The notes: generated from the sequence alone by a model not told the origin. Shown: positions 15,175-53,309, numbered from the stretch's first letter. The stretch: 64,000 nucleotides of DNA from Solirubrobacterales bacterium (GCA_012718975.1 JAAYBF010000185.1:66-64065), one strand, 5' to 3'. Numbers and translations: made by a program.

Positions 15175-16668
15175 TCACATGCCGTCGAGCTCGACCGTGA
15201 CCGTCTTCGCCTCGGTGAAGAAGTCGCGCGAGTGGACGCCGCCCTCGCGGCCCACGCCCGACAGCTTCGCCCCGCCGAACGGGGTGCGCAGATCGCGCAC
15301 GAAGAAGCAGTTGACCCACACCAGCCCGGCGCGGACCGAGGCCGCGACGCGGTGGGCGCGCGAGAGGTTGGTCGTCCAGACCATCGCCGCGAGCCCGTAC
15401 GGGGTGTCGTTGGCGCGCTCGAGCGCCTCGGCCTCGCCGTCGAACGGGCTGACCACCAGCGCGGGCCCGAAGATCTCGTCGCGCACGCAGCGGTGGTCGG
15501 CGGGCAGGCCCTCGATGATCGTCGGCTCGACGTAGAAGCCGTCGGCGAGCGCGGGGTCGGACGGGACGCCGCCGCCGAGGCGGACGGCGCCGTCCGCGGT
15601 CCCGGACTCGAGGAAGCCGACGACGCGGTCGCGGTGCTCGGCGGTGACCATCGGGCCGATCTGGGTGGCGGGATCGAGCGGGTCGCCGATCGGCAGCGCC
15701 TTCGCGCCGGCGATCAGCCGCTCCATGAACTCGTCGTAGATCGGCCGCTCGAGCAGCAGCCGCGAGCCGGCGAGGCAGACCTCGCCCTGGTTCTTGAAGA
15801 TGCCCTTCAGCGTGCCGGCGACCGCCAGGTCGAGGTCGGCGTCGGCGAAGACGATGTTCGGCGACTTGCCGCCCAGCTCGAGCGACAGCCCCTTCAGCGT
15901 CGGCGCCGCGTTGGCCATGATCGCCTTGCCGGTCGTCGACTCGCCGGTGAAGGTGACGAGGTCGACGTCGGGGCTCGCGACGAGGTACTCGCCGGCCGCG
16001 TCGGGGCCGAAGCCCTGGACCACGTTGAGCACGCCCGGCGGCAGCACCTCGGCGGCCAGCTCGCCGAGCATCGTCGCGGTGACCGGCGACTGCTCGGCGG
16101 GCTTGAGGATCGCCGTGTTGCCGAACGCGAGCGCCGGCGCGATCTTCCACGAGCCGAGCATCAGCGGGAAGTTCCAGGGCGAGATCGCGGTGACGACGCC
16201 CTTGGGCTCGTAGCGACTGTAGGTGAGGTGCTTGGTGGCGGGGAAGACCTCGGCCTCCGACATCCGCAGCCAGTCGGCGAAGAAGCGCAGGTTGCGCTCG
16301 ACGCGCGGCAGGTCGAAGGTGCGCGACTCGGTGATCGGCTTGCCCATGTCGCGCGTCTCGGCCTGGGCGATCTCCTCGCGCCGGTCGTGGACGGCGTCGG
16401 CGAGGGCGTGCATCAGCTTGCCGCGCTCGTCGGCGGACATTCGCGGCCACGGCCCCTCGTCGAACGCGCGGCGGGCGGCGGCGACGGCGCGGCGGACGTC
16501 CTCGGCCCCGCCCTCGGCGACCCGCGCCCAGACGCGGCCGGTGTGCGGGTCGACGCTCTCGAAGGTGCGGCCGTCGGCGGACGGGACGGCCTCGCCGTCG
16601 ATGACGTGCAGCACGTCGCGGCCGAAGTCGCGGTGCTCGAGCCGCTGCTGGTCGGCGGTCTGGGTCAT
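15175..16668 (-). CDS. 2-hydroxymuconic/2-aminomuconic semialdehyde dehydrogenase-type ALDH
   Basis: 497 aa with ALDH motifs ISPWNFP, FTGESTTG, LELGGKSP and GEVCLAGSR. It sits within a meta-cleavage operon. Confidence 0.88.
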   Translation of the reverse strand: MTQTADQQRLEHRDFGRDVLHVIDGEAVPSADGRTFESVDPHTGRVWARVAEGGAEDVRRAVAAARRAFDEGPWPRMSADERGKLMHALADAVHDRREEIAQAETRDMGKPITESRTFDLPRVERNLRFFADWLRMSEAEVFPATKHLTYSRYEPKGVVTAISPWNFPLMLGSWKIAPALAFGNTAILKPAEQSPVTATMLGELAAEVLPPGVLNVVQGFGPDAAGEYLVASPDVDLVTFTGESTTGKAIMANAAPTLKGLSLELGGKSPNIVFADADLDLAVAGTLKGIFKNQGEVCLAGSRLLLERPIYDEFMERLIAGAKALPIGDPLDPATQIGPMVTAEHRDRVVGFLESGTADGAVRLGGGVPSDPALADGFYVEPTIIEGLPADHRCVRDEIFGPALVVSPFDGEAEALERANDTPYGLAAMVWTTNLSRAHRVAASVRAGLVWVNCFFVRDLRTPFGGAKLSGVGREGGVHSRDFFTEAKTVTVELDGM

Positions 16669-16859
16669 CGGTCCTCCATCTCGCTCTTCGGCACTCCCCC
16701 GACGCCCCAGTGCTCGGCCGGGACCTCGGAGAGGATCACCCGCACCGACGCGCGCGGCGCGCCCGTCGTCTCGACGACGGCGTCGGTCAGGCGGGCGATC
16801 AGCTCGCTCTTGACCGCCGTGTCGCGGCCCTCGATCAGGGTGACCTGGACGAGCGGCAT
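16665..16859 (-). CDS. 4-oxalocrotonate tautomerase family protein
   Basis: 64 aa starting [12 protein letters not shown] (catalytic Pro-1 context). It overlaps the upstream stop by 1 nt (TGATG). Confidence 0.85.
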   Translation of the reverse strand: MPLVQVTLIEGRDTAVKSELIARLTDAVVETTGAPRASVRVILSEVPAEHWGVGGVPKSEMEDR

Positions 16860-17638
16860 CAGGCCGCCGCCGTCACGGTGCCGAGGCCGTCGAACTCCGC
16901 GCTGACCGTCTGCCCGGCGCCGATCGCGACGGCGTCGGTGAGCGCCCCGGAGAGGATCAGCGAGCCGGCGGGGAGGGTCCTGCCCTGCTCGGCGAGGCGG
17001 TTGGCCAGCCACGCCACGGCGGCCGCCGGGTGCTCCATCACGGCGGCGCCCGCGGCGGTGGCGACGAGCTCGCCGTCGCGGCGCAGGACGCAGCCGAGCA
17101 GGCGCAGGTCGCCGACGTCGGCGGGCGCGGCGGCGACCGGGCCGACGATCAGGCTCGCGGCGCTGGCGCTCGCGTTGTCGGCGACGACATCGGGGAGGCG
17201 GAAGTCGAAGTCGCGGTAGCGCGAGTCGATCACCTCGAGCGCGCCGAAGACGGCCTCGGTCGCTGCCAGCACCTCGACGACGGTCGTCGGCCCGGCCAGC
17301 TCCTCGCCGAGCAGGAAGGCGATCTCCGGCTCGACGCGCGGATGGATCAGCCGATCCAGCGGCAGCGGCGTCGCGGCCTCGTGGACCATCGCGTCGGTGA
17401 GCCAGCCGTAGAGCGGGTCGTCGACGCTCATCTGGCGCTGCTTGGCGCGGCTGGTGAGGCCGAGCTTGGCGCCGACGATCCGCTCGCCGGCGGCGAGCCG
17501 GCGCTCGATCCCCCGCCACTGGACGTCGTAGGCCTGCTCGATCGTCAGGTCGGGCTCGGTCGCGGTGAACCGCTCGATGTCGGTCACCTGCTCGACGGCG
17601 GCGGCGAGCCGGTCGGCGATCGCGTCGAGGTCAGGCAC
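16859..17638 (-). CDS. 4-oxalocrotonate decarboxylase / 2-oxopent-4-enoate hydratase family protein (copy A)
   Basis: 259 aa with a GTG start. Contains [14 protein letters not shown] and [10 protein letters not shown], typical of the MhpD/XylI/XylJ fold. A second paralogue lies at 19525..20346. Confidence 0.85.
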
Positions 17639-18653
17639 TGGCGGCCTCCCTTGCGGCGGCCATCTCGGCGGCCACCTCGATGATCAGGTCCTCCTGCCCG
17701 CCGACGGCCTTGCGCCGGCCGATCTCGAGCAGGATGTCGCTGGCGCGGACGCCGAAGCGCTCCTCGGCGCGGCGCGCGTGCAGCAGGAACGACGAGTAGA
17801 CGCCCGCGTAGCCGAGCACGAGGCTGTCGCGGTCGACGATCTGCTCGCGCGGCATCAGCGGCGCGACGACGTCCTCGGCGACGTCGGCGATCTTCAGCGG
17901 GTCGACGCCGGTCTCGATGCCCATCCGCGCGCAGGCGGCGACGAGGATCTCGGTCGGCGTGTTGCCGGCGCCGGCGCCGAGCCCGCGCGTGCAGGCGTCG
18001 ATCCAGCGGGCGCCGGCGTCGATCGCGGCGAGCGAGTTGCCGACGCCGAGCGACAGGTTCTGGTGGCCGTGGAAGCCGACGGCGACCTCGTCGGGCAGCG
18101 CGTCGCGCAGCGCGCCGACGCGGGCGGCGGCGGTGTCGGGCACCAGCGCCCCGGCGGAGTCGGTGACGTAGACGACCTCGGCGCCGGCCTCGGCCATGAT
18201 CGCCGCCTGGCGGGCGAGCTCGTCCGGCTCGGTCATGTGGGCCATCATCAGGAAGCCGATCGCGGTCATCCCGAGCTCGCGGGCGAGCCCGAGGTGCTGG
18301 ATCGAGATGTCGGCCTCGGTGCTGTGGGTGGCGATCCGGACGACCGCGGCGCCGAGCTCGCGGGCCCGCTTGAGGTCGTCCTTGGTGCCGATCCCGGGCA
18401 GCAGCAGCACGGCGAGCCGGGCGTCGTCCATCGCCTCGCGGGCGGCGGTCAGCAGCTCGAGCTCGTCGGTGCCGGAGAAGCCGTAGTTGAACGAGGAGCC
18501 GGCGAGGCCGTCGCCGTGGGCGACCTCGATCACCGGCACGCCGCAGCCGTCGAGCGCCCCCGCGACCGCGCTGACCTGCTCGCGCGTGTACTGGTGGCGC
18601 ATCGGGTGGCTGCCGTCGCGCAGCGTCGAGTCGCAGAGCGTGATCGCGGTCAC
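17631..18653 (-). CDS. 4-hydroxy-2-oxovalerate aldolase
   Basis: Starts [19 protein letters not shown] and contains [23 protein letters not shown], a DmpG/MhpE/BphI-type sequence. GTGA overlap. Confidence 0.92.
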
Positions 18654-19528
18654 GACGCCACCGCCTCGACCTGGGCGAGCTCCTCGCCGACGCGGACGGC
18701 GGCGGCGGTCATGATGTCGAGGTTGCCGGCGTAGGGCGGCAGGTAGTCGCCGGCGCCCTCGACCTCGATGAAGACCGCGACGCGGTCGTCGTCGAAGACC
18801 GGCTCGCCGCGCAGGCGGTAGCCGGGAACGTAGCCCTGGACGCGCGCGGCCATCGCCTGGATGCTCTCCGCGATCGCGTCGCGGTCGGCGCCGGGCGTGA
18901 GCGCGCAGAACACGGTGTTGCGCATCAGGATCTCCGGCTCGGCGGGGTTGAGGATGATGATCGCCTTGCTGTCGCGGGCGCCGCCGATGTCGGCGACCCC
19001 ACCGGCGGTCGTACGGGTGAACTCGTCGATGTTCTGGCGCGTGCCGGGGCCGGCGCTGGAGCTGGAGATCGTCGCGACGATCTCGGCGTAGGGCACCTCG
19101 GTCGCGGCGCTGACAGCGGCGACGATCGGGATCGTCGCCTGCCCGCCGCAGGTGATCAGGTTGACGTCGGGGGCCGAGCGATGCTCGTCGAGGTTGACGA
19201 CCGGGACGACGCCGGGGCCGAGCTTGGCGGGCGTCAGGTCGATCGACTGCACGCCGACGGCGGCGAGCTTCTCGGCGTGGACGACGTGGGCGGACGCGGA
19301 GGTGGCGTCGAAGGCCATCGCGACCGAGTCGGCGTTGTCGACGAGCCAGTCGATCCCCTCGTGGGAGGTCTCCAGCCCGGCGGCGCGGGCGCGGGCGAGG
19401 CCGTCGGACTCCGGGTCGATGCCGACCATCGCGACCGGCTCGAGCCGCTCGGAGCGCGACAGCTTGGCCATCAGGTCGGTGCCGATGTTGCCCGAGCCGA
19501 CGATCGCGCAGGGGACGCGTTCGCTCAT
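18650..19528 (-). CDS. Acetaldehyde dehydrogenase (acetylating)
   Basis: Starts [16 protein letters not shown] and contains [12 protein letters not shown], a DmpF/MhpF/BphJ-type sequence. ATGA overlap. Confidence 0.92.
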
Positions 19529-20346
19529 GCCTGTTCCTCCTGGGAGACGAAGCGGACGCCGACCGACCCGAGGTGGGCGAACTCGGCGGTGACGGAGCTG
19601 CCGGCCACGACGGGGGCGGCGGCGTGCAGCGCCCCGGCGAGCACGACGTCGCCGGCGCGCAGGCCGTCGCCGTAGGCGCCGAGCGTGTTGGCCAGCCAGG
19701 CGAGGCAGCGCACGGGGTTGCCGAGCACGGCGGCGCCGGCGCCGGTCGCGGTGACGGTGCCGTCGATCGTCAGCGCCATGCCGCAGAGGCGGAGGTCGAG
19801 CGCGGTCGGCTCGAGCATCCGCCCGCCGAGCACGCAGCGGGCCGAGGAGGCGTTGTCGGCGATCGTGTCGGCGAGGGTGATCTTCCAGTCGGCGACGCGG
19901 CTGTCGATGATCTCGATCGCCGGGAGCACGCCCGCGATCGCGCGCAGGGCGGCGGAGACGTCGACGCCTGGCCCGGCGAGGTCGGTGCCGAGCACGAAGG
20001 CCAGCTCGGCCTCGACGCGCGGCGCGACCAGCTCACCGACCTCGACGGCGTCGCCGTCGGCGACCATCATGTTGTCGAAGAGGACGCCGTAGTCGGGGCT
20101 GTCGACCCCGAGCTGGCGCTGCATCGCGGCCGAGGTCAGCCCGACCTTGCGCCCGACGATCCGCTCGCCGCCGGCGAGCCGGCGGGCGGTGTTCAGCCCC
20201 TGGATCGCGTAGGCGTCCTCGATCGTCAGCCCCGGCGCGGTCTCGGTCAGCGCGGCGATCCCGACCCGGGCCTCCTCCGCGTCGAACAGCGCGTTGGCAA
20301 GCTCCTGCCGCACCGCGGCCCCAACGGTTGCGTTGTCGTGCTCCAT
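19525..20346 (-). CDS. 2-keto-4-pentenoate hydratase family protein (copy B), first gene of the meta-cleavage operon
   Basis: ATG at 20346 (MEHDNATV...). Contains [14 protein letters not shown] and [10 protein letters not shown]. The track ORF 19525..20499 over-extends across the operator. Confidence 0.85.
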
Positions 20347-20364
20347 AGCGATGACGCCCAGTAT

Positions 20365-20378
20365 TGCAAACGATTGCT
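20365..20378 (-). promoter_or_regulatory. LacI-type operator-like box (site 3), 19 nt upstream of the meta-cleavage operon
   Basis: TGCAAACGATTGCT, identical to site 2 over 14 nt. The shared flank TCCACCGC follows in both sites. Confidence 0.55.
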
Positions 20379-20525
20379 GAAACGTCCACCGCAAACGTCG
20401 ACCGCGGGTCGACAGCCCGTCGCGACGAGCGGCGGACGCCACCGCGCGCACCCGCCGGCCAGCAGGCGAGAGGCCAGGGAGGCGCTCGCCACCGGCCAAC
20501 GCGGCTGGTGGCCGCCGCGCCGACG

Positions 20526-21734
20526 CTAGAGCAGCATCGCGACGCGCTCGTCGACGCCGAGCAGCGCCTTGCCGTAGACCTCGCGCGCGATCCCGTCATT
20601 GGAGAGCGCGTGGCGGCTGGCGGTCTCGACATCGCGCCAGATCCGCTCGATGCCCGCCACCTGGGCGAACCCGGACGTGCCGTGGGCGTTCATCAGGACG
20701 TCGACCGCCTCGCGGCAGGTCTTGGCGACATAGGCGGTGTCCATCCGGATCCGGCAGCGCTCCATCAGGTCGAGCTGCACGCCGGCGAGCGCCGCCTCGT
20801 CGACGACCGTCGCGGCCCGCTCGGCGACGAGCTGGGCGGCGTTGATCATCGCGGCCGCCTCGGCGACCTGGACCTGGAAGCCGACCGAGTCGGTCTGCGC
20901 CTTGTAGATCGAGGTGGCGATCGCCCGCTTGGGCGCCTTCTCGATCACGTAGTCGAGCGCCGCCAGCGCCATGCCGACCAGCGGCCCGGTGAGCGCGAAG
21001 GTGAGCATGCCGGTGAACGGCGCGCGGTAGAGGACCTCGTCGCGATGCTCGGTGGCGTAGTTGCCCTCGAGCGCGTCGCCGAGCGAGATGACGCGGTGGT
21101 CGGGCACGAACGCCTCCTCGACCACGACGGTGTTCGAGGCGGTGGCACGCATGCCGGCGACGTGCCAGGTGTCCCCGACGGTGAAGTCGTCGGAGGGGAT
21201 CAGCGCCAGGCCCTGGTAGCCGGCTCCGGCGCCGTCGCCGATCGGCACGCCGAGGCTGGCCCATTCGGCGAACTGGGAGCCCGAGGCGTACGGCCACTTG
21301 CCGGTCACGATCAGCCCGCCGTCGGCACGGCGGGTCTCGGCCAGCGGCGGGATGATCCCGACCATCCCGGTGTCCGGGCCGTCGGCCCAGACCTCGGCCT
21401 GCGCGGCGTCCGGGTAGAGACCGGCCATCCACGAGGCGGTGTTCATGATGCCGACCACCCACGCGGTCGACGCGCAGCCGCGCGCGAGCTCGATCGCGAC
21501 CCCGAGCAGGGCGCGCCCGTCGGCCTCGTAGCCACCGAGCCGGCGCGGCGCGGTCAGCCGCAGCAGCCCCGCCTCGCGCACCGCCTCGATGACGCCGTCG
21601 TCGAGGCGGCGGTCACGGTCGGCCTGCGCCGCCGCCGCGGCGAGCTGCGGACGCAGGGCGGCGGCGCGGGCGATCAGCTCGGCCCGGCGCTCGGCCGGGT
21701 CCTCGGCTGTCAGTGGTGGCGGCGTGGCACTCAT
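20526..21734 (-). CDS. Acyl-CoA-dehydrogenase-fold flavin-dependent monooxygenase, oxygenase component (HsaA/HpaH-C2/DszC-like)
   Basis: About 402 aa with ACAD-like N, middle and C domains but the context of a two-component oxygenase. The ATG at 21734 has AGGAG 9 nt upstream; the track start at 21755 is a TTG. Confidence 0.75.
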   Translation of the reverse strand: MSATPPPLTAEDPAERRAELIARAAALRPQLAAAAAQADRDRRLDDGVIEAVREAGLLRLTAPRRLGGYEADGRALLGVAIELARGCASTAWVVGIMNTASWMAGLYPDAAQAEVWADGPDTGMVGIIPPLAETRRADGGLIVTGKWPYASGSQFAEWASLGVPIGDGAGAGYQGLALIPSDDFTVGDTWHVAGMRATASNTVVVEEAFVPDHRVISLGDALEGNYATEHRDEVLYRAPFTGMLTFALTGPLVGMALAALDYVIEKAPKRAIATSIYKAQTDSVGFQVQVAEAAAMINAAQLVAERAATVVDEAALAGVQLDLMERCRIRMDTAYVAKTCREAVDVLMNAHGTSGFAQVAGIERIWRDVETASRHALSNDGIAREVYGKALLGVDERVAMLL

Positions 21735-43939: not shown

Positions 43940-43968
43940 AGAGGGCCGGCCATGGTGGCCGGCCCTCT
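43940..43968 (-). terminator. Terminator-like hairpin downstream of the secreted-protein operon
   Basis: AGAGGGCCGGCCA-TGG-TGGCCGGCCCTCT, a perfect 13-nt inverted repeat about 65 nt after the stop at 44033. Confidence 0.55.
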
Positions 43969-44032: not shown

Positions 44033-46780
44033 CTATCGGCCTCCCTTGGCCTTGGTCTTGGTCGTGGACTTCGCCCTGCACGGGGTGGTGACTCTCAGGC
44101 CGCGTGCCCGCACCTTCCCGTTCTGACCGCGGAACACGGTCCTGGCGATGTGCTTCTTGGGCTTGGCGCAGAGGTTGATGTCGCCCCTGCGGCTGCCAGT
44201 CACGGCGAGGATGCCGTTCTGGCCACCCTTGATGTTGAGGTTGAACTTGGCGATCGGAGCGTCGGGCACACCGGCGAAGGTGTTGACCAGACGCCCGTTC
44301 TTGGTCGTCGAGGACTTGCCGACCAGGTTGACCGCGATCTCGCCGCGGAGGGCGGCCACGATCATCGGCAGCGTCCGGATCTCGTTGCCCGTGTCGGGGT
44401 CGATCCGGATGTTCTTGACGAAGTACACGTTGCCGACCAGGTCACGCTCCAGCAGCGGCGTCTTCGCCCGCGCCCGCCCCACGATCGAGCCCTCGGGGCA
44501 GTGCTTCTCGAGATCCGGCTTGGTCCCGTCCTCGAACTCGCACAGCGCCTGCGCGTTGTCGGGGTCGAGCGCCAGGCTCGGCGGAAGCACGACCCTGGCG
44601 CGCCGGATGCCCGCCTCGCCGATCCCGGTCTGCCGCACCTCCGCACGGACACCCGGGTGCTTCCCGGTCCGCGTCTGGCGCGGGCCGGTGAGCCGGAGAC
44701 CGAGGCGCGGCTTGAACTTCAGGTCGGCGCAGTCGCTGGCCTGGAACCGTGCCGAGACCGGCGCCGACTGCCCGGCGGCCGAGCCGAGCACCCCGTCGAC
44801 CTGCTTCTGCGCGCACGAGGTCGGGTTGATCATGAAGCCCGGCTTGTCGACGAGCACGTCGACGCGCTGCAGCCGGACCGGGACGCCCTTGACGATCGTC
44901 GGCAGCGGATCGCTGACGACGCTCACCTCGGCGGTGAACGGATCGACGTAGACCTTCTGGCGGACGACGACCTCGCCGAGGTCGAACGGGCCGGCCTTCG
45001 CCGGGACCACGACCCGCAGGCTGTAGGGGGCATCCCCGTAGGCGCCCTCGAGCGTGACCGTGCCGGGCAGCATGAACGGCTGCCCGCCGGGACCGGCGAA
45101 CGTGCGGACCGATCCGACCTGGGTGTTGAGGTTGCCCTTGATCTTCGCGAGCAGCCCGGTGGGCATCTCCAGCGACACCCCGTTCATGGCGGTGTCGCGG
45201 TCGGGCTTGGCTATGTGCAGCGCGAACGGCGAGAACGCGCCGCCGGTCGGGTCGGTCGTGCCGGCCGAGAAGGTCGGCGAGAACCCGCCGAGGCCGGCGG
45301 TGCAGTCGACGTCGAACTCAGAGGTGCGGTCGACCGTCTGGCCACCCCAGGAGCTGAGCTCGATGTCGATCGTCTTGGTGCCGCAGGTCGGCGGCGTCGC
45401 GAGCGGCGCCCGCGGACCCGACTTGAGGTCGAGCTCGATGCTCGACACCGGCAGCTCGGGGTTGTTGTCGAACGTGGTCACCAGCCGCCCGGTGCTCGCG
45501 TCGGCGCGGACCTGGCCGGGAAGCCGGACCGAGATGCCGCGCTTCTCGTTCTCCAGGACCAGCGCCAGGCGGAACATCTCCCCGGACTGCGGGTCGCTGG
45601 AGTTCTGCGAGCGGATGTAGACCCCGCCGGAGATCTCCTCCTCCATCAGCGGCGACTTCGCCGTGACGGTGCCGACCTTCGAGGCCTCCGGGCACTCGAC
45701 CGGCTGCTTGGACTTCAGCTTGAGCTGGGCGTCGGAGCAGGCCTGGAGGCCGTTGGCCGCCGACGGGTTGATCGTCATCCCCTCGGGGAGCGTGACGACC
45801 GCCTTCTTGAGCGCCGGCGGCGCCTGACCCTCATCGTTGTCCTCCTGCGGGAACGACATGTCGACGTCGAGCCCGCTCGGCGCGTCGGGCGCCGTCGTCG
45901 TCGGCGCGATGTCCACCGACGGCTCGAACTCCAACGTGTCGCATGAGGTGATCAGCGGCGACACCGCCTGGGCGGTCTTGAAGACACCGGGATTCGTCCA
46001 GCTGTCGGTCTCGAGGACCGTCACCGGAGCCTCCGCCGGACAGTTCGTCGTCGAGTTCGTCAAGAACGGCTTCTCGAACGCTCCGGGCTCGCCCTTCTCC
46101 CGACAGCGGAAGTTCGAGTTGTTCGGGATGAAGTCCATCTCCACGCCGTAGCTACAGAACGTGGTGTCGACGCTCTTCAGGAAGTTGTTGTTGATCGCCG
46201 GCACGTTCATGTTCACGCCGTAATCACCATCGGAACGCAACTCCGGATACACGATGAACGTCAGGCTGGCCTCGCTGAACCCGAACTCCGCCGGGTAGCC
46301 GTCCTCCGGGGCAACATTGACCACCGGCGTGTTGAGATCAGTCAAACCGCGGACCCGCACCCACCCGACAAACGAATCCTCCGGACAGAACGTCGGCGCG
46401 GCCGAGTTCGTCTGAGCGCCGACGGTGTCCAGCGGGCAGGTACCCGCGGCCTGGGGATTGCCGACGAAGCCGGCCGGGAGCCGCATGCTCAGCGAGCGCG
46501 GGTCCTCGACAGGCCGCTGCGGCGCGAGGGTGTTCGACGGGGACACCCCCGGGCCTGGATCGTAGGTGTTGAACGCGAAGAACGCCCTAGCCGAGTGCGG
46601 GTGCGCGCTGGCGCGTGTCTCGTCCTCACCAGCAGCATTCTTGACCTCGGTGAAGAACGAGCTGATGCCGTACTCGCTGCCCGGTGGCGGACCGACCGCG
46701 CCCGCGGGCGCGGTCGCCCCCAGCATCGCGATGGCCGCCAGGCCCACCGATAGCGCACACCGGCCCAGGAATCGCTCCAT
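44033..46780 (-). CDS. Large secreted Cys-rich modular protein, unknown function (P1)
   Basis: I prefer the start at 46780 (MERFLGRCALSVGLAAIAMLGATAPAGA = signal peptide) with GGAAAGG upstream. It has three repeats of LPxG..NP...C-x13-17-CPExSxVG and a basic tail ending KAKGGR. Confidence 0.8.
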   Translation of the reverse strand: MERFLGRCALSVGLAAIAMLGATAPAGAVGPPPGSEYGISSFFTEVKNAAGEDETRASAHPHSARAFFAFNTYDPGPGVSPSNTLAPQRPVEDPRSLSMRLPAGFVGNPQAAGTCPLDTVGAQTNSAAPTFCPEDSFVGWVRVRGLTDLNTPVVNVAPEDGYPAEFGFSEASLTFIVYPELRSDGDYGVNMNVPAINNNFLKSVDTTFCSYGVEMDFIPNNSNFRCREKGEPGAFEKPFLTNSTTNCPAEAPVTVLETDSWTNPGVFKTAQAVSPLITSCDTLEFEPSVDIAPTTTAPDAPSGLDVDMSFPQEDNDEGQAPPALKKAVVTLPEGMTINPSAANGLQACSDAQLKLKSKQPVECPEASKVGTVTAKSPLMEEEISGGVYIRSQNSSDPQSGEMFRLALVLENEKRGISVRLPGQVRADASTGRLVTTFDNNPELPVSSIELDLKSGPRAPLATPPTCGTKTIDIELSSWGGQTVDRTSEFDVDCTAGLGGFSPTFSAGTTDPTGGAFSPFALHIAKPDRDTAMNGVSLEMPTGLLAKIKGNLNTQVGSVRTFAGPGGQPFMLPGTVTLEGAYGDAPYSLRVVVPAKAGPFDLGEVVVRQKVYVDPFTAEVSVVSDPLPTIVKGVPVRLQRVDVLVDKPGFMINPTSCAQKQVDGVLGSAAGQSAPVSARFQASDCADLKFKPRLGLRLTGPRQTRTGKHPGVRAEVRQTGIGEAGIRRARVVLPPSLALDPDNAQALCEFEDGTKPDLEKHCPEGSIVGRARAKTPLLERDLVGNVYFVKNIRIDPDTGNEIRTLPMIVAALRGEIAVNLVGKSSTTKNGRLVNTFAGVPDAPIAKFNLNIKGGQNGILAVTGSRRGDINLCAKPKKHIARTVFRGQNGKVRARGLRVTTPCRAKSTTKTKAKGGR

Positions 46781-46812
46781 CCTGTTTGCCTTTCCAGCCG
46801 ACTCGACCGACA

Positions 46813-49800
46813 TCAACGACCGCCCTTCTTGGCCTTGTTCTGTTTCCGCTGCGGCTGCTTGAAGGTGACCCTCACGGTCCTGGAAGCGGACTGGCCGTCC
46901 TTGGCCCGATACGAGATCCGGACACGGACCTTCAGCGCCTTGCGCTTCCTCAACGCCTTCCTCGCACGGAAGCCCAGGGCGACCTTCACCGTGTAGCTCC
47001 CGGCCCTCGACGCGAACCGCCTGGTCCGCCGGACCGCGCGGCCGGCAACTGAGATCCGTCCCGCGTCCGGCACCCGCACCTTCAACCGTCCAGCCGGTCC
47101 GGTGACCGCCTTCACCTTCGAGACGCCGACCACAGCCCTCTTCTCATGCGGGACGTTCCCTTCTCCGCCAGAGCGCACCGAGCCGATCGAATCAGGCGCC
47201 GGCGGAGCCGACAGCTCCCCCTGACACCCCTCACCCTGACACGGCTCGGGCGGCGCCGGCGACGGCGCGAACCCGCCACCCCGACGCAAGACGTACGTCG
47301 CCACCGAGCCGCTGGTGTGCTCAGGCAGCAACGGCGCGGCGGTCGTGATCGTGATCGTGTCCCCAGACGGCGACATCGTCACCGCTCCCGCGTCCTGAAT
47401 CGACTGCCCGGACGACAGCAGGAAGAACTCGTCGTCCGCGGCCCGCCACAGATACGCGTCCTCGGCCGTGTTCACATCGTCAGGACTCAAGCGCTCCGCC
47501 GTCTTGAAGATGAAGCTGGCGCCACCATTGGAGAACTGACGAGCCGCGCCGTGGCGATTCGAGACCGACTGCAGCGAGCCGGTGCCATTGGCCGCTGTCA
47601 TCGTCCCGAAATCCGGCGATATCCCGGCGCTGCGGGCCGCGCCGTTGTGGTCGGGATCGTCCGGCCAGAGTCGCCGCAGGCCCCCGCTGTGGGCATCGAA
47701 GCGAAAGACATCGTTGAACGTATCGCCGGGCAGGCGATCCCCGGCGAGATCGGCCGTGCTCAAGAAGAATGCGTACCGTCCCGAATCGGACAGCTGGATC
47801 TTTCGACGCACATCGCCAGCCCAAAGATCGGCGTCGGCGGCCGCGAGCGTCCCCACGAACTTGATCGTTCCGGCCGGATCGGGCGCTGGACGGTGGTACA
47901 CGTACAGGTTTGGCTGACCAGACTGCGGCGTGTTGCCATAGACGTTTGCACCCGCGAGCGCCCGCCCGTTGGCCACGAAGTAGACACGGCTACCGTCATC
48001 GGACACCCGCACGACGTTGAGCACACCGGCTCCGTCCGCCTCCGTGCCGATCGTCACCGGGACCAGCTTGTTGCCCGGACGCTCGAAGTCGTACTCGTAC
48101 AGATCCATCTTGCTGGCCGTGTCCAGATCGCCGTCAACCAGCTTCTGCTCGGTCTTGAAGTACACGCGGTTGCCGTCCCGAGACGCGCCCGAGAACGCCG
48201 CGCGCTGCTGCACTCCACAATCGGTCGTGCACTGCGTTGCAGAAAGGTCGACGGGATCGTTCGCCCCCTCCTTCATCCACACACGATTGACCGCGGCCGA
48301 GTTGCAAGCCGGGAGCGCCAACGACGGAGTGAAGAAGATCCGCTGACCATCCGCAGACACCGCATGCAGCCCAGTCACACCCGTGGTGCCGAGATACCCA
48401 CCGAGATGCATGGTGCACGTCGGAAACATCGTGGCGCCCCCGCTGAACGCCACCTGGCGAGTCTCGATCGAACCGTCGGGCTGACGCACGGCGACCATGA
48501 GGGTCTCGCGTGAGGTCGGACGCGCGTCGACGGTCCCGTCGGTCAGCGCCGGCCGATCCTTGGTCCTGAACACGACGGTATTCAGATCGGCCGATGTCCC
48601 CACGATGGTGCTCGAACCGGTCGAGTCGTCGAGTACGGGGCCCGCGACGCGCATGGTCCCATCGCTCTCCCGGATGAACGGGGTGAAGCGATTCGTGCCG
48701 ACGTCGGCGCGCGCGTTGCCCATCCAAAGCGCGCGTGAGCCATCGTCGGTGTGATCCCGGACCCCGCCCTGCCCCTGCAAGAACGGGTACACGGATCCGG
48801 GCGGAGTGAGCGGCTCGGTCACCCAGCCGGACTCGGTCCTGCGGGCGAAGTACAGGTTGTTGAAGTTCGTGAGATTCTCGGAGTCGGCGAACCCGCCCGC
48901 TGAACTGAACAGCAGCGAGTTGCCTTCGGGATTCATCGCTCCAGCAAGAGCACGCTGCCCGCTGGTCCAGTTCGGCGTGGCCAGCTCGTATGCGAAGCAC
49001 ATGGGTAGGACCTGGGCGGCGAGTCCTTGCTGGGCGCGGATGTCGGCGTTCGGGCACGGGTCGTGGGGTGCTACGTCGCTGCGGAAGGTCCGATCGGCTC
49101 CGAGAGCGGTGCCGCCACCGTTCTCGGCGACGAGGCGGTAGTGGTAGGTGGTGTCGGGCTGGAGCCGGCCGGTCGTCGCCGACACGTCCACGACGTCCTC
49201 ACCGGGCCCCAGCTTGGGCGGCTGGCAGGCGGCGCGGCGGCCGTAGTCGGTCGTCAGGCCGTACTCGAAGTAGCAGTCGCTGGTCGGGAACGAGGCGCTG
49301 TTGGGATTGACGGCGCCGGCGAGCTTGGCTGACGGGAAGTCGATATCGCTGGCCGAGCCGGTGGTCACCTCTGGGGCGTCGGGCTTCGGTGCGAATGTCG
49401 CCGTCGCGTCAAGCGGATTGACGAGGACGGCGGCGGTCTGACACGTCGGACTATCCCCCGAGCAGGTGCCTCCCACGGTGCCGGACCAGCCGACGAACGC
49501 CGCGTCCTCGGCCGGCGTGGCGGTGAGCTGGATGCCAGCGAAGTTGATAGGGAAGTCGAAGCTGCAGGCCGTCTGCTCGGCGCCTGGAATGTTCGAGCAG
49601 TCGATTCCCGCGGGATCGCTGACGACGTGCCCGGTCCCGGGTCCCGCGAGCGTTACCGAGACCACCGCGGCGGACGCGCTCGCCGGCAGGGCAGCCACGG
49701 CCAACGCGACGGCGACAACAAGGCCGAGCGGCAATGCCAGCCGCGGCCTGAGAGCGGGGGCCCTTCGCGCTCGTCGTTCGCTTCGGACTGAGTGGGGCAT

Positions 49801-49818
49801 ATCTGTTGGGTCCTCCAT
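46813..49818 (-). CDS. Large secreted multidomain protein (P2): InlB-B-repeat-like, FN3-like, PD40/TolB-like beta-propeller repeats, Ig-like C-terminus
   Basis: Signal peptide RRAPALRPRLALPLGLVVAVALAVAALPASASA. B-repeat-like VTLAGPGTGHVVSDPAGIDC...FVGWSG and FN3-like YFEYGLTTDYG...TTYHYRLVA. Recurrent DG(S/Q/N)R(V/I)(Y/F)F motifs, and a tail ending KAKKGGR. Possible starts are 49818, 49800 or 49881. Confidence 0.8.
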   Translation of the reverse strand: MEDPTDMPHSVRSERRARRAPALRPRLALPLGLVVAVALAVAALPASASAAVVSVTLAGPGTGHVVSDPAGIDCSNIPGAEQTACSFDFPINFAGIQLTATPAEDAAFVGWSGTVGGTCSGDSPTCQTAAVLVNPLDATATFAPKPDAPEVTTGSASDIDFPSAKLAGAVNPNSASFPTSDCYFEYGLTTDYGRRAACQPPKLGPGEDVVDVSATTGRLQPDTTYHYRLVAENGGGTALGADRTFRSDVAPHDPCPNADIRAQQGLAAQVLPMCFAYELATPNWTSGQRALAGAMNPEGNSLLFSSAGGFADSENLTNFNNLYFARRTESGWVTEPLTPPGSVYPFLQGQGGVRDHTDDGSRALWMGNARADVGTNRFTPFIRESDGTMRVAGPVLDDSTGSSTIVGTSADLNTVVFRTKDRPALTDGTVDARPTSRETLMVAVRQPDGSIETRQVAFSGGATMFPTCTMHLGGYLGTTGVTGLHAVSADGQRIFFTPSLALPACNSAAVNRVWMKEGANDPVDLSATQCTTDCGVQQRAAFSGASRDGNRVYFKTEQKLVDGDLDTASKMDLYEYDFERPGNKLVPVTIGTEADGAGVLNVVRVSDDGSRVYFVANGRALAGANVYGNTPQSGQPNLYVYHRPAPDPAGTIKFVGTLAAADADLWAGDVRRKIQLSDSGRYAFFLSTADLAGDRLPGDTFNDVFRFDAHSGGLRRLWPDDPDHNGAARSAGISPDFGTMTAANGTGSLQSVSNRHGAARQFSNGGASFIFKTAERLSPDDVNTAEDAYLWRAADDEFFLLSSGQSIQDAGAVTMSPSGDTITITTAAPLLPEHTSGSVATYVLRRGGGFAPSPAPPEPCQGEGCQGELSAPPAPDSIGSVRSGGEGNVPHEKRAVVGVSKVKAVTGPAGRLKVRVPDAGRISVAGRAVRRTRRFASRAGSYTVKVALGFRARKALRKRKALKVRVRISYRAKDGQSASRTVRVTFKQPQRKQNKAKKGGR

Positions 49819-49896
49819 CGTGCCTTCTCGACTTTCTCCCGCCACGGGCGCCAGCCGGCCAGAAGCGGTACGCATCTCCATCGCTCAGGACACGTC

Positions 49897-49918
49897 GTTT
49901 GCGCCAAAAGACGCAAAC
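49897..49918. promoter_or_regulatory. Inverted repeat GTTTGCG-n8-CGCAAAC in the divergent region between the secreted-protein operon and the tandem TetR gene
   Basis: 7-bp arms in a locally AT-richer spacer. The direct repeats AGAACGCGCG at 50035-50044 and 50062-50071 lie nearer the TetR start. Confidence 0.4.
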
Positions 49919-50098
49919 AGCCATGTCCATGATCTTTCTAAGAAACACCTAGCTACCGATTTCGTCAAGGGGCAACCGTGAGTGGGTGCTCGATCCGGAC
50001 AGGAAGCTGAGGTCCGGCCAGCGCCGACCGGCCCAGAACGCGCGGCGGCGCGCCTAGAGATAGAACGCGCGTGCGCTCGTTGTAGGCTCGGTGGCCGC

Positions 50099-51412
50099 AT
50101 GACGAAGACTCCCTGGGGCGATTCCGAGGAGCTGCGTGCCCGCAAGCTCACGCCGGGGCACCGTCTCCCCGCGGCGGAAGTGGCGCGCAGCCAGCGGGAA
50201 CGCCTGCTCGCCGCGGTCGTCGCCACGGTGGCCGAGCAGGGCTACGAACGGACCTCGGTCGCCGACATCGTCGAGGCGTCAGGGGTCTCGCGCACCGCCT
50301 TCTACAGGCACTTCTCGAACAAGGAGGAGTGCTTCGTCGCGGCGGTCGACGGGACTCTCGAGATCGCGATGGCGGCTATCGGCGAGGCCTACCGCACCGA
50401 GGGCGGCTGGGACGCCCGACTCGTCCGGGCGTTCGAGACCTACGTGAACGAGATCATGGCCCAGCCAGCCGCGGCTCAGATCTGCCTGATCGATACCTTC
50501 GCCGCGGGCCCCGCCGCTATCGAGCGCGTCAACCGCGGCGGGGCGCAGTTCGAGCGGATGCTGCGGCAGAGCTTCGCGCAGTCGCCCCTGCACGCGGGGC
50601 TGCCGCCCTTGGTGGTCCGCGGCATCGTCGGCGGGGTGCGCAACGTGGTCGCGACACGGCTCCGGGTCGGCCAGGCCGACACCCTGGGCGAGCTCGCACC
50701 GGGACTGGGCGCTTGGACGCTGACCTACCGCGCGCCCTCGACCCCGATCCGGCGCCCGCGCGTGCAGCCGGCGGCACCCGGCGCCGCCCGCCCGGACGCC
50801 AACGACCAGATGGCGCGGATCTTCGCCGCGCTCGATTCGGTCGTCCGCGAGAAGGGCTATCTGGCGACCACCCTCGACGACGTCGCCGACCGGTCGGCGA
50901 TCTCGTTCAGCACGTACTACAACTACTTCAGCACCAAGGAAGAGGCGTTTCTCGCCGCCTACGACCAGGGGATCGCCCAGGCGTACGCGGCGTCCGCCCC
51001 CCCGTTCCAGCGCGCCCCGGACTGGCCGCACGGCGTGCGAGCGGCCCTGGAGGGCCTGCTCACCTACCTGGCCCGCGAGCCCGACTGGGCCTACTCGGCC
51101 GTCGTCGAGGTGCTGGCCGTCGGCGCCCCCGGGATAGCGCGCCGCGATGCCGCGATCGAGAAGTTCACGAGGATGCTCGAACCCGGCTTCGAAGAGGCCC
51201 CCGACCTCGCTCCGGTCGCCCGTGAGGCGATCGGCGGCGCGATCTTCGAGACGCTCTACAACCGCATCCGCGAGCGCGACTCGCGCAAGCTGCTCGACCT
51301 GCTGCCGACGGTGACCTTCCTCGCCCTCGCGCCGTTCATCGGGGCCGACGCGGCGGTCGCCGTCGCCAACGAGCGGGCGCCGCGCCGAGTCGCCCACAGC
51401 CGCGCCTCCTAA
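50099..51412 (+). CDS. Tandem (fused double) TetR-family regulator
   Basis: 437 aa with two complete TetR_N HTH segments (YERTSVADIVEASGVSRTAFYRHFSNKEECF and YLATTLDDVADRSAISFSTYYNYFSTKEEAF). Each is followed by a helical ligand-domain-like region. Confidence 0.8.
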   Translation: MTKTPWGDSEELRARKLTPGHRLPAAEVARSQRERLLAAVVATVAEQGYERTSVADIVEASGVSRTAFYRHFSNKEECFVAAVDGTLEIAMAAIGEAYRTEGGWDARLVRAFETYVNEIMAQPAAAQICLIDTFAAGPAAIERVNRGGAQFERMLRQSFAQSPLHAGLPPLVVRGIVGGVRNVVATRLRVGQADTLGELAPGLGAWTLTYRAPSTPIRRPRVQPAAPGAARPDANDQMARIFAALDSVVREKGYLATTLDDVADRSAISFSTYYNYFSTKEEAFLAAYDQGIAQAYAASAPPFQRAPDWPHGVRAALEGLLTYLAREPDWAYSAVVEVLAVGAPGIARRDAAIEKFTRMLEPGFEEAPDLAPVAREAIGGAIFETLYNRIRERDSRKLLDLLPTVTFLALAPFIGADAAVAVANERAPRRVAHSRAS

Positions 51413-51531
51413 CGCCGTCCCGGCCGGCTCCCGACGCGACCGGCCGGCGCCGGCCCGGCACGACCTGCCGCGGTATGGCAGACTGACCATGACCGGTATT
51501 GATAAGCTTCCGTACTTACGATTGGGAGCCG

Positions 51532-52185
51532 ATGCGCGAGGCGGGGAACCAAGGGGGCGCGACCGCGCCCAGATCGAAGCGCCGCAGGCGAGGCCAGCTC
51601 AAGAGCGGCCCCCACGGGCTGACGCGTGAGGAGGTCGCTGCCCATCAGAGCGCACGCATCCAAGCGGCGATGAGCGAGCTCGTGGCGGCGCGTGGCTACG
51701 ACGGGACCACCGTCGAGGAGATCGTCACGCGAGCCGGCGTATCGCGGAAGACGTTCTACGAACGCCACAAGAGCCGTGAACAGTGGTTCATCGAGATCTG
51801 CCAGACCGCCGCGGGCGGGTTGAGCGATCGGATCACGCGTGCCGGCGAGGCTGGCGGAAGCCGCAGCGAGCGCGCCGCGCGGATCGCAACCACGCTGCTC
51901 GGGCACTGGCTCGACGACCCCACCTCGGCGCACGCGTGCTTCGTCGAGACCCTCGCCGCCGGCGAGCAGGCCCGGGCGTGGCGCGGACAGCTGCTCGAAA
52001 CCCTCCACACGACCATCGCTCAGGCGATCGGCGGAGAGCGTGCCCCAGACATCGATCGCCTCGCGACACGGGCCGCGGTCGGGGCGGTCCTGGAGCTGGT
52101 CGGCCACGACGCGATCCAGGTCGACGAGCAGCAAGCCGTCGCGCTGATACAGACCATCCTCGTCACCGGCGAGCCACCGCGATGA
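51532..52185 (+). CDS. TetR-family transcriptional regulator (single module)
   Basis: Contains YDGTTVEEIVTRAGVSRKTFYERHKSREQWF. The ATG at 51532 has GGGAG upstream; the track start at 51499 is a TTG. Confidence 0.8.
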   Translation: MREAGNQGGATAPRSKRRRRGQLKSGPHGLTREEVAAHQSARIQAAMSELVAARGYDGTTVEEIVTRAGVSRKTFYERHKSREQWFIEICQTAAGGLSDRITRAGEAGGSRSERAARIATTLLGHWLDDPTSAHACFVETLAAGEQARAWRGQLLETLHTTIAQAIGGERAPDIDRLATRAAVGAVLELVGHDAIQVDEQQAVALIQTILVTGEPPR

Positions 52186-53309
52186 CCGCGACCCCGTGGG
52201 GAGACCCGCGCGACCTGCACGCCCGCACACGGCCCGCCGCAGATGACGGGGGGACGGTGCGCGAGCGGGTCCACGCGGCGATGGTGACCGCCGTCGCCGA
52301 GCGCGGCTACGACGCGATCCGCGAGGACGACCTGGCCGAGCTCGCGGGCGTGACGCGCGCCGCTTTCGACGCGGAGTTCGACGACCGCCTCGGCTGCTTC
52401 GTCGCGACGCTCGAAGCCACGCTCGAGCTCGCAGCGGCCGCCGCGACGGCCGCCGTCCGACCGGAGGCGGACTGGCGCGCCCGCATCGAGCTCTCCTTCC
52501 AGGCGCTCCTGGAGTTCGTCGCGGCCTATCCGGCCGCCGCGCGGCTCTGCCTCGTCGACGTCTACGCCGCCGGGCCTGCGGCGGTCGCCGCGCTCGACCG
52601 GAGGACCCGCACGGTGGGTCGCTGGGCGATCTCGACCATCGAGCAGTCGCCGGAGCGGGCGAGCATGCCGCGCGACATCGTGCGCGCGGCAGTCGGTGGG
52701 GTGCGCCACATTGTTCAGGCGCGCATCATGGCGGGGCGCACGAGCGAGCTGCCCGGTCTCGCCCCCGCGCTCGTGGACTGGCTGCTGACCTATCGCACGC
52801 CGCCGGTCGACCTCCCGCCGGCGATCGCGGGCGCGCCACCGCCCCCGGAGGACGTACGCGACCGCCGCGGCCTGGACCGGTCGTCACGCGTCGCCGCGCT
52901 CGAGGAGTCCGTCGTGCGGATGCGCGACACCGCCGTGCGCGCCTACCGTGCCGCGCCCGACTGGACCCGCGGGGTGCGCGACGGCCTGAGGGCGCTACTG
53001 GAGTACCTCTCGACGCACCCGGCGGAGGCGCGCCTGGCGACCGAGGTCGTCTGGGCGGGGCCGGCGGTCCGAGCCCGCTTCGACGCGCTGGCGGTGGGCT
53101 TTGCGATCCAGCTCGCGGAGGGCCTGCGCGGGCGCTCGCCCGCACCGGGACTCGCGGCCGAGGCAATCGGGTTCAGCATCGCAACGCTCATCTTCGAACG
53201 CACGACCCGGCAGGGGCCCGAGCAGCTCGAGGAGATCGGCCCGGTCGCGACGTTCGTCGCACTCGCCCCCGCCGTCGGCGCGATCGAGGCCTGCGCCGTG
53301 GTCGAGTGA
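52182..53309 (+). CDS. TetR-like regulator, long paralogue of 50099..51412 lacking the second HTH
   Basis: The ATG overlaps the upstream stop (ATGA). It shares the N-terminus MT-TPWGD with the tandem TetR and has one HTH-like segment (YDAIREDDLAELAGVTRAAFDAEFDDRLGCF). Its second half aligns to the second ligand domain of the tandem protein (APDWTRGVRDGLRALLEYL versus APDWPHGVRAALEGLLTYL). Confidence 0.7.
   Translation: MTATPWGDPRDLHARTRPAADDGGTVRERVHAAMVTAVAERGYDAIREDDLAELAGVTRAAFDAEFDDRLGCFVATLEATLELAAAAATAAVRPEADWRARIELSFQALLEFVAAYPAAARLCLVDVYAAGPAAVAALDRRTRTVGRWAISTIEQSPERASMPRDIVRAAVGGVRHIVQARIMAGRTSELPGLAPALVDWLLTYRTPPVDLPPAIAGAPPPPEDVRDRRGLDRSSRVAALEESVVRMRDTAVRAYRAAPDWTRGVRDGLRALLEYLSTHPAEARLATEVVWAGPAVRARFDALAVGFAIQLAEGLRGRSPAPGLAAEAIGFSIATLIFERTTRQGPEQLEEIGPVATFVALAPAVGAIEACAVVE

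Follow-up and report, generated by a model that had tools for sequence, protein, structure and literature searches.

P2 and P1 are two adjacent genes on the minus strand of a 64,000-nucleotide stretch of DNA from a Solirubrobacterales metagenome-assembled genome (MAG; GCA_012718975.1, JAAYBF010000185.1:66-64065); the whole stretch is called the window below. They occupy positions 44033-49818 in the order P2, then P1, and encode two large proteins that begin with signal peptides and end in strongly basic C-termini. Genes of these two types recur side by side, and neither protein has a classical surface anchor. We propose that P1 and P2 form a heteromeric surface complex, which is held by charge on the anionic cell envelope through the polybasic ends and binds an external ligand; we give this reading a probability of roughly 40%. 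Solirubrobacterales are abundant soil Actinomycetota, and to our knowledge their cell surface is almost unstudied. We found no relevant literature on surface proteins of Conexibacter or Solirubrobacterales, and the pairing of P1 and P2 is unreported in the literature available to us.

A co-encoded gene pair

The longest open reading frames (ORFs) on the minus strand extend over 46813-49881 for P2 (1022 codons at most) and 44033-46816 for P1. The start of P2 is most likely the ATG at 49818, because this codon is preceded by a Shine-Dalgarno-like motif, GAGAAGG. The ATG of P1 at 46813 overlaps the stop codon of P2 as TGATG, and the N-terminus read from it (MSVESAGKANRMERF...) agrees with those of the orthologues P0002 and P0003. 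The spacing between the two genes was called as 0-1 nucleotides (nt) in three related loci, L001-L003, with a 1-nt overlap in L001. The overlap, the orthologue N-termini and this spacing indicate that P1 and P2 are translationally coupled. A first-pass annotation of the window, made from the sequence alone, had given a spacing of 32 nt; this is right if P1 starts at M13 (46780) and wrong for the ATG at 46813. The end coordinate that it gave for the pair coincides with the P2 start at 49818. Its protein lengths, about 1000 and about 915 amino acids (aa), agree with the ORFs, which give about 1001 aa for P2 from ATG 49818 and 915-926 aa for P1. The strong hairpin that it had seen closing the operon is also there. 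It lies 66 nt 3' of the P1 stop codon, folds with -40.3 kcal/mol (z -6.95), and 0 of 200 shuffled sequences were equally stable.

The window contains only one P2-P1 pair. Its P1 is 100% identical to the NCBI protein GXY03_12370 from a Solirubrobacterales MAG. In a collection of 5.8 billion proteins, P1 was found at 100% identity with a truncated N-terminus, and P2 was not found, its best match being 86% identical. The P2 ORF of the window is intact and confidently folded in the structural model; public records may leave this gene uncalled or treat it as a pseudogene.

Distribution and pairing

Homologs of P1 formed more than 2054 clusters at 90% identity, and every named one is annotated as hypothetical. 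The search with P2 gave 275 matches, the close ones among them sharing their contigs with P1 homologs. When genomes of species representatives were scanned, more than 540 P1-type stretches were confirmed. The best 80 of these, on which the taxonomy rests, are nearly all from Solirubrobacterales/Thermoleophilia and include the cultured carriers Conexibacter arvalis, C. stalactiti and Patulibacter defluvii. Three loci with P1-type genes (L013, L040 and L056) are short contigs from MAGs that bear the labels Nakamurella lactea, Tepidisphaeraceae and Paraperlucidibaca; these are probably binning errors and not genuine carriers outside Thermoleophilia. P1 had no match among plasmids in a tblastn search.

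Pairing was counted by hidden Markov model scans of 82 fetched loci. They gave 75 adjacent pairs in which both genes have the same orientation and the P2-type gene directly precedes the P1-type gene. These pairs often form tandem arrays and occur in Patulibacter, Conexibacter, Baekduia, Thermoleophilaceae and Solirubrobacteraceae. Thus, the two-gene unit proposed earlier is real and conserved, and the survey of the pair that had been suggested as a check places essentially all of its occurrences in Solirubrobacterales. Within the fetched loci there are at least nine P1 paralogs in the MAG CAWIJS and at least six on the chromosome OY970159.1. One locus carries a single uninterrupted ORF of 2012 codons (L066:4620-10658, plus strand), which runs from a P2 core through a basic stretch (RRHKKRKHHKGRHRKQRRGGQSSR) and a pair of FN3-like domains into a complete P1 core without its own signal peptide. 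This ORF is possibly a natural fusion of P2 and P1, if there is no assembly error, and in that case it supports a shared function of the two proteins.

Architecture of P2

Searches of P2 against Pfam, NCBIfam and PADLOC gave nothing above cut-off, and NCBIfam gave nothing at all. Three matches to Pfam were sub-threshold: Flg_new_2 (PF18998, InlB B-repeat; 20.1 bits, cut-off 23.6), Pur_ac_phosph_N, which is FN3-like, and PD40 (PF07676; 12.6 bits, cut-off 20.9). PF18998 is found as a precomputed match on the close P2 homologs P0121, P0132, P0133 and P0144, and PD40 is above cut-off in the P2 relatives P0286 (24.7) and P0320 (23.6). A P2 profile had no meaningful match among PDB sequences. The AlphaFold2 model of P2, built with 59 sequences, has a mean predicted local distance difference test score (pLDDT) of 87.8 and a predicted template modelling score (pTM) of 0.76. 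In the 995-aa numbering of the query, it contains beta-sandwiches at aa 45-140 and 144-240, a propeller region at about 265-845, a low-confidence Pro-rich linker at 866-887 (pLDDT below 50) and a C-terminal sandwich with one helix at 900-985 (strands 903-981). The list of modules drawn from the sequence beforehand is therefore right at the level of the fold. We ran Foldseek on the models against PDB and BFVD, as the first-pass annotation had advised, and both proteins gave domain-level matches with low template modelling scores (TM-scores). The P2 model matched extracellular architectures that combine a propeller with FN3 (Sevenless/ROS1, tricorn, GH74 and BT4663) with a probability of 1.0 and low TM-scores. 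P2 resembles TolB/PD40 propellers, tricorn, BT4663-type sensors and the ectodomains of Sevenless/ROS1 in its PD40-like blades and Ig/FN3 flanks. It differs from these proteins in that PD40 stays below the Pfam cut-off in the window P2, and in that it has no peptidase or sensor domain, carries a polybasic C-terminal domain and is always paired with P1. The P2 core together with its C-terminal domain is an undescribed architecture.

The linker motif PCQGEGCQGE, already pointed out before this analysis, turned out to be family-wide; C854, C859 and Q860 did not vary across 59 sequences, down to 31% identity. The pair of Cys residues may form a disulfide loop or a link between subunits. A thioester was considered for this motif and rejected, since the order of residues is not CxEQ and the motif lies in a disordered linker; Foldseek matches to A2M, C3 and TEP were low-probability matches of Ig domains. 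The charge of P2 is split between its two parts. The last 100 aa have a net charge of +31 in the window and of +25.4 on average (standard deviation 3.8, n=162 P2-type proteins), and the remainder has about -30.

Architecture of P1

P1 is all-beta in its AlphaFold2 model (pLDDT 90.5, pTM 0.78). Profile-profile comparison of four segments by hhalign revealed that it consists of four homologous modules of about 200 aa. Modules 1, 2 and 4 carry LP.G...NP.A..C-x(13-16)-CP..S.VG, a predicted disulfide-bridged loop, and the Cys residues of P1 are paired inside the repeated modules, as had been noticed from the sequence. The family had not been recognised at that time, and this remains so: Pfam gave no match for P1 or for nine diverse homologs, except for an accessory N-terminal DUF11 in one homolog, P1 has no match in NCBIfam or PADLOC, and its profile has no meaningful match among PDB sequences. 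DUF11/TIGR01451 does not match the window P1; some homologs have DUF11 as an addition at the N-terminus, as P0101 does at aa 67-139. P1 represents an undescribed family.

Foldseek matched P1 to AgI/II C123, ClfA, SdrD, integrin legs and a DUF11 protein with probabilities up to 1.0 and TM-scores of 0.27 or below, and the best viral match in BFVD was a Tupanvirus DUF11 protein. P1 shares pairs of beta-sandwiches with ClfA, SdrD, SpaP/AgI/II C123 and DUF11 proteins (probability 1.0 for 7l0o, 6e3f, 5jq6, 10ps and the Tupanvirus protein). Its TM-scores to them are low, the identity is 7-10%, and it has no Pfam match to any of these families and no sortase signal; it is built from a module of its own family, which is repeated four times and has the disulfide loop motif. 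No family-specific Pfam domain of the MSCRAMM or antigen I/II proteins was found in P1 or in the nine diverse homologs. Judged from the model, the type of domain in P1 is familiar and its overall architecture is not.

Export and search for known anchors

Both window proteins have an N-terminal hydrophobic signal region, as do 109 of 117 P1 homologs and 38 of 41 P2 homologs. Both proteins look secreted, in agreement with the first reading of the sequence. That reading had also seen no sortase, PEP-CTERM or transmembrane anchor, and none was detected in either protein here. P1 and P2 have no transmembrane-like segment past the signal peptide (the maximum KD19 past that of P1 is 1.35), no LPXTG and no lipobox. 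They do not belong to the sortase-anchored (LPXTG/LAXTG) class; P2 has no such motif, and the LAVTG of P1 (44201-44215, minus strand; aa 869-873 in 926-aa numbering) was rejected as a sortase signal. It is internal to a folded module, the family consensus at this site is LAVTR, and no hydrophobic or membrane segment comes afterwards. The LAVTG of P1 resembles the actinobacterial sortase E motif. PEP-CTERM, GlyGly-CTERM, PGF-CTERM and related signals were absent, as there is no C-terminal transmembrane segment and no NCBIfam match at E up to 1. The SLH domain had no Pfam match at E up to 1 in P1 or P2. The sorting domain of the type IX secretion system had no Pfam or NCBIfam match in the C-terminal domain, and the hosts are Actinomycetota; what this sorting domain and the C-terminal domain of P2 have in common is only a small beta-sandwich and a terminal position.

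Polybasic C-termini

Both window proteins end in KGGR, and none of the other credible genes of the window has such a tail. The first-pass annotation had taken this end as common to the two proteins and had asked for a survey of it. In the loci taken at species level, P2 ORFs (n=92) have 6.3 K+R and 0.6 D+E in the last 20 aa and P1 ORFs (n=96) have 6.9 and 0.4, compared with 2.6 and 2.4 in the other ORFs of the same loci (n=475). An ending of the form GG.?[RK] is found in 34% of the P2 ORFs, 6% of the P1 ORFs and 0% of the others. Among close P2 homologs, 43 of 49 end in KGGR or KGR. In 120 listed P1 homologs the tail follows immediately on the last conserved Cys and has 7.6 K/R within its final 20 aa, and only the window P1 ends in KGGR (1/120). 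Thus, the polybasic composition is conserved in both families, and KGGR/KGR is a signature of the P2 family that P1 orthologues do not share.

The last 110 aa of P2 matched 566 representative proteins, and in each of them the match is at the very C-terminus. Of 147 newly returned representatives with this domain, 50 close with GGR and 13 with KGR. A role as a general tag was rejected, because all carriers have the same propeller core and the longer ones only add NHL or FN3; the P2 C-terminal domain is thus family-specific. About 20 of the 120 P1 homologs, a long form of about 990 aa, end in a homolog of the P2 C-terminal domain (E down to 1e-15). It follows from these comparisons that the P1 and P2 families share a C-terminal module in many genomes, of which the window P1 keeps only the tail, and the long-form homologs make a shared C-terminal function of P1 and P2 plausible.

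Surroundings of the pair

The features of the locus are listed in Table 1. Three divergent TetR-type genes had been reported next to P2. Two of these ORFs (49982-51412 and 51499-52185) passed the Pfam cut-off for TetR_N, and the third is weak (E 0.011). TetR-like genes connected by BLAST form one cluster of 67 members, which were found in 29 of about 80 loci; the association with the pairs is recurrent, not universal. A related regulator in another locus (L074, 2787-3803) has TetR_N together with weak C-terminal matches to FaeA and HTH_36, which are below cut-off. The window locus and L001 share a synteny that takes in the TetR genes, an SRPBCC gene and a CHASE3-GGDEF gene. Just past the CHASE3-GGDEF gene, L001 has a dnd-type DNA phosphorothioation cluster (16363-21423; DndB, PAPS reductase-like, SMC-like, DndE), and at this position the window has an aldehyde dehydrogenase gene.

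The region between P2 and the TetR genes contains a perfect palindrome, GTTTGCG-N8-CGCAAAC (49897-49918), which is a candidate operator. It is partly kept in L001 and absent from all other loci searched, and its single occurrence is not significant, as 11 of 100 shuffles also matched. An upstream block, GTTG..TTGACG..CGGTAGCT..TGTTT, is common to the window (49925-49975) and L001 (7510-7570). The block may be the P2 promoter; a sigma-70 consensus scan found nothing.

Table 1. Coordinates of P2, P1, their domains and neighbouring features in the window
Feature	Position	Strand	Basis or remark
P2 gene	46813..49818 (ORF reaches 49881; stop codon 46813-46815)	-	about 1001 aa from ATG 49818; 275 homologs
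P2 signal peptide region (RRARRAP...LPASASA / AVV)	49669..49818	-	translation; strongest hydrophobic stretch aa 48-66
P2 Ig-like domain, like InlB B-repeat	49381..49668	-	Flg_new_2 sub-threshold; beta-sandwich in AlphaFold2 model
P2 FN3-like domain	49081..49371	-	weak Pur_ac_phosph_N; profile match to FN3 structure 3b83, E 0.039; AlphaFold2 strands 144-240
P2 PD40-type beta-propeller region, about 580 aa	47266..49008	-	recurrent DG.R.YF ... DLY.YD motifs; weak PD40
P2 Pro-rich linker with PCxG[DE]xCQG	47104..47265	-	low model confidence
P2 C-terminal Ig-like polybasic domain, ending KKGGR-COOH	46816..47103	-	AlphaFold2 strands 903-981; net charge
P1 gene	44033..46813	-	926 aa from ATG 46813; alternative start 46780 gives 915 aa
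P1 signal peptide (MERFLGRCALSVGLAAIAMLGATAPAGA / VGP)	46697..46780	-	translation
P1 module 1	45929..46693	-	aa 30-284 (915-aa numbering); hhalign 1 vs 2 96.6%
P1 module 2	45290..45928	-	aa 285-497; hhalign 2 vs 4 99.6%, 2 vs 3 96.8%
P1 module 3	44717..45289	-	aa 498-688; hhalign 2 vs 3 96.8%
P1 module 4	44078..44716	-	aa 689-901; hhalign 2 vs 4 99.6%
P1 polybasic tail RAKSTTKTKAKGGR	44036..44077	-	directly behind last conserved Cys; translation
Terminator-like hairpin GAGGGCCGGCC-ACCAT-GGCCGGCCCTC	43941..43967	-	66 nt 3' of P1 stop
TetR-type regulator, 476-codon ORF, two TetR_N stretches, a tandem or double TetR	49982..51412	+	Pfam TetR_N E 1.4e-22, 79.7 bits
Second TetR-type regulator	51499..52185	+	Pfam TetR_N E 2e-10, 40.7 bits
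Third, weak TetR-like ORF, start uncertain	52182..53309	+	TetR_N E 0.011, 15.9 bits, below cut-off; same BLAST cluster
Divergent intergenic region, P2 / TetR genes	49819..49981		palindrome and block conserved with L001

The window has a GC content of 72%. Around 45.75-46.5 kb it falls to 0.61-0.64; low GC at 46.1-46.3 kb had been taken as a hint of foreign origin. We rejected this idea. GC at third codon positions (GC3) stays at 0.87-0.93 there, and because the drop is confined to codon positions 1 and 2, in a segment rich in Asn, Phe, Ser and Thr, amino-acid composition accounts for it. GC3 is 0.925 for P1, lower within its first third, and 0.82 for P2, the lowest among the convincing genes of the window (most 0.93-0.99).

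A proposed charge-held surface complex and its alternatives

We propose the following mechanism. P2 and P1 would be made together, because their genes belong to a single transcription unit in which the stop codon of P2 overlaps the start codon of P1, and would be exported through their N-terminal signal peptides. In P2, Ig-like and FN3-like domains and a PD40-type propeller make up a rigid body that is acidic, with a net charge of about -30, and is tied by a flexible Pro-rich linker to a small Ig-like domain with a net charge of about +25 to +31 and a KGGR end. P1 is a compact array of four two-sandwich modules with adhesin-like folds and a Lys/Arg-rich tail. The two proteins would interact physically, and the polybasic C-terminal modules would hold the complex non-covalently on wall glycopolymers or the membrane, leaving the propeller and Ig-like modules to bind an external macromolecular ligand. 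The many paralogous pairs of a genome, often beside regulators of one TetR subfamily, would be a repertoire of such complexes, each switched by its own cue. A charge-held heteromeric complex seems to us the most economical mechanism.

Retention of this kind has been proposed for Lactobacillus S-layer proteins, in which the wall-binding part has a high predicted pI and interacts electrostatically with negatively charged wall polymers (PMC3666127). SlpA and CbsA of Lactobacillus are like P1 and P2 in that they are Sec-exported, lack an LPXTG or transmembrane anchor and have a basic terminal part beside an acidic or neutral functional part; for both systems electrostatic attachment to anionic wall polymers is what is proposed. 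There is no sequence kinship between them. Unlike SlpA and CbsA, P1 and P2, each about 1000 aa long, are encoded together and exist as many paralogous pairs, and the basic part of P2 is a small Ig-like domain whose KGGR end is conserved.

The following points weigh against the charge-held complex. The strict conservation of K-G-G-R at the end of P2 exceeds what simple charge would need. A TetR-like gene lies directly upstream of only 14 of the 65 P2 genes with enough flank, and TetR regulation is therefore not general. The fusion in L066, seen in one MAG only, may have arisen during assembly. Finally, given the low TM-scores (0.24 or less for the adhesin matches), the resemblance of P1 to adhesins exists at the level of domains only.

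The same charge data, and the same lack of a covalent anchor motif, would be expected if P1 and P2 were released from the cell and their polybasic ends bound extracellular DNA, acidic exopolysaccharide, humic material or minerals, as a matrix scaffold or for capture. Many P1 tails, for example TKRQTKAAKRKAKRAAAKARH, look like those of actinobacterial (mycobacterial) HBHA, whose Lys/Ala-rich C-terminal tail binds sulfated glycans and which has also been reported as a nucleoid-associated protein (PMC3293801, PMC10665949). HBHA is surface-exposed and polyanion-binding (PMC3293801), and P1 tails such as KRQTKAAKRKAKRAAAKARH are similarly rich in Lys, Ala and Arg. Unlike P1 and P2, HBHA is small and coiled-coil and has no signal peptide; it is not homologous to them, and the likeness is compositional only. 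Binding to the cell's own wall and binding to an external polyanion are not separated by these data, and the tight pairing and many paralogs fit either. We consider release unlikely, and still serious enough to be kept in mind. It is also conceivable that the K-G-G-R or K-G-R end of P2, together with some GG-basic ends of P1, is a sorting or processing signal for a dedicated transpeptidase or protease, which would trim the proteins or attach them covalently as part of a new lineage-specific anchoring system. Position-specific conservation of the end, seen in the close P2 homologs, in the wider set of representatives and in the excess of GG-basic endings over other ORFs, is unusual for a tail that acts by charge only. 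However, the motif is almost confined to one protein family instead of being found on varied passengers, most P1 orthologues lack it, RRGG is internal in the L066 fusion, and no conserved gene for a candidate enzyme is found among the neighbours; this makes a sorting signal improbable. If the KGGR end were a processed signal, it would be a new class of Gram-positive surface-sorting signal.

Two further explanations are very improbable. P1 and P2 could build up an S-layer or another regular lattice of this sort on the surface, as the first-pass annotation had suggested among other options. Both are large, secreted and all-beta, each has a basic part that may serve in wall binding, like the Lactobacillus proteins, and SbsB is among the weak Foldseek matches (probability 0.14). 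The numbers of paralogous P1 genes in CAWIJS and on OY970159.1 and the regulators often adjacent to them argue against a lattice, the GC3 of P2 does not suggest very high expression, and no SLH domain was found. Alternatively, P2 could be an extracellular enzyme with a lactonase- or hydrolase-type propeller and P1 its substrate-binding partner. Distant P2 relatives carry NHL/SGL propellers, labelled by one source as sugar lactone lactonase YvrE, and the Foldseek matches include GH74 and prolyl oligopeptidase propellers. However, the NHL domains are extra N-terminal additions outside the conserved core, the repeats of the core follow the non-catalytic PD40/TolB pattern, and no catalytic domain was matched in Pfam, NCBIfam or PDB sequences, so that an enzyme is just as hard to defend as a lattice.

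The charge-held complex belongs to a general kind that is familiar, namely large proteins of Gram-positive bacteria that are built from Ig and propeller domains, lie on the surface or outside the cell and are retained non-covalently. The pair might instead be a new, undescribed type of modular receptor specific to Solirubrobacterales, in which a heterodimer of a propeller protein and a four-module Ig protein is combined with a new C-terminal retention or sorting module, and of which a genome has about ten or more differently regulated pairs. Such a receptor would be loosely integrin-like in its parts, and we think it rather unlikely.

Significance for Solirubrobacterales

The P2-P1 pair is among the most expanded secreted protein families of Solirubrobacterales. 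It gives annotators two new families, a pair with a four-module repeat and a polybasic C-terminal module, and it provides a concrete hypothesis for how large proteins may be displayed on the cell surface without sortase-type anchors.

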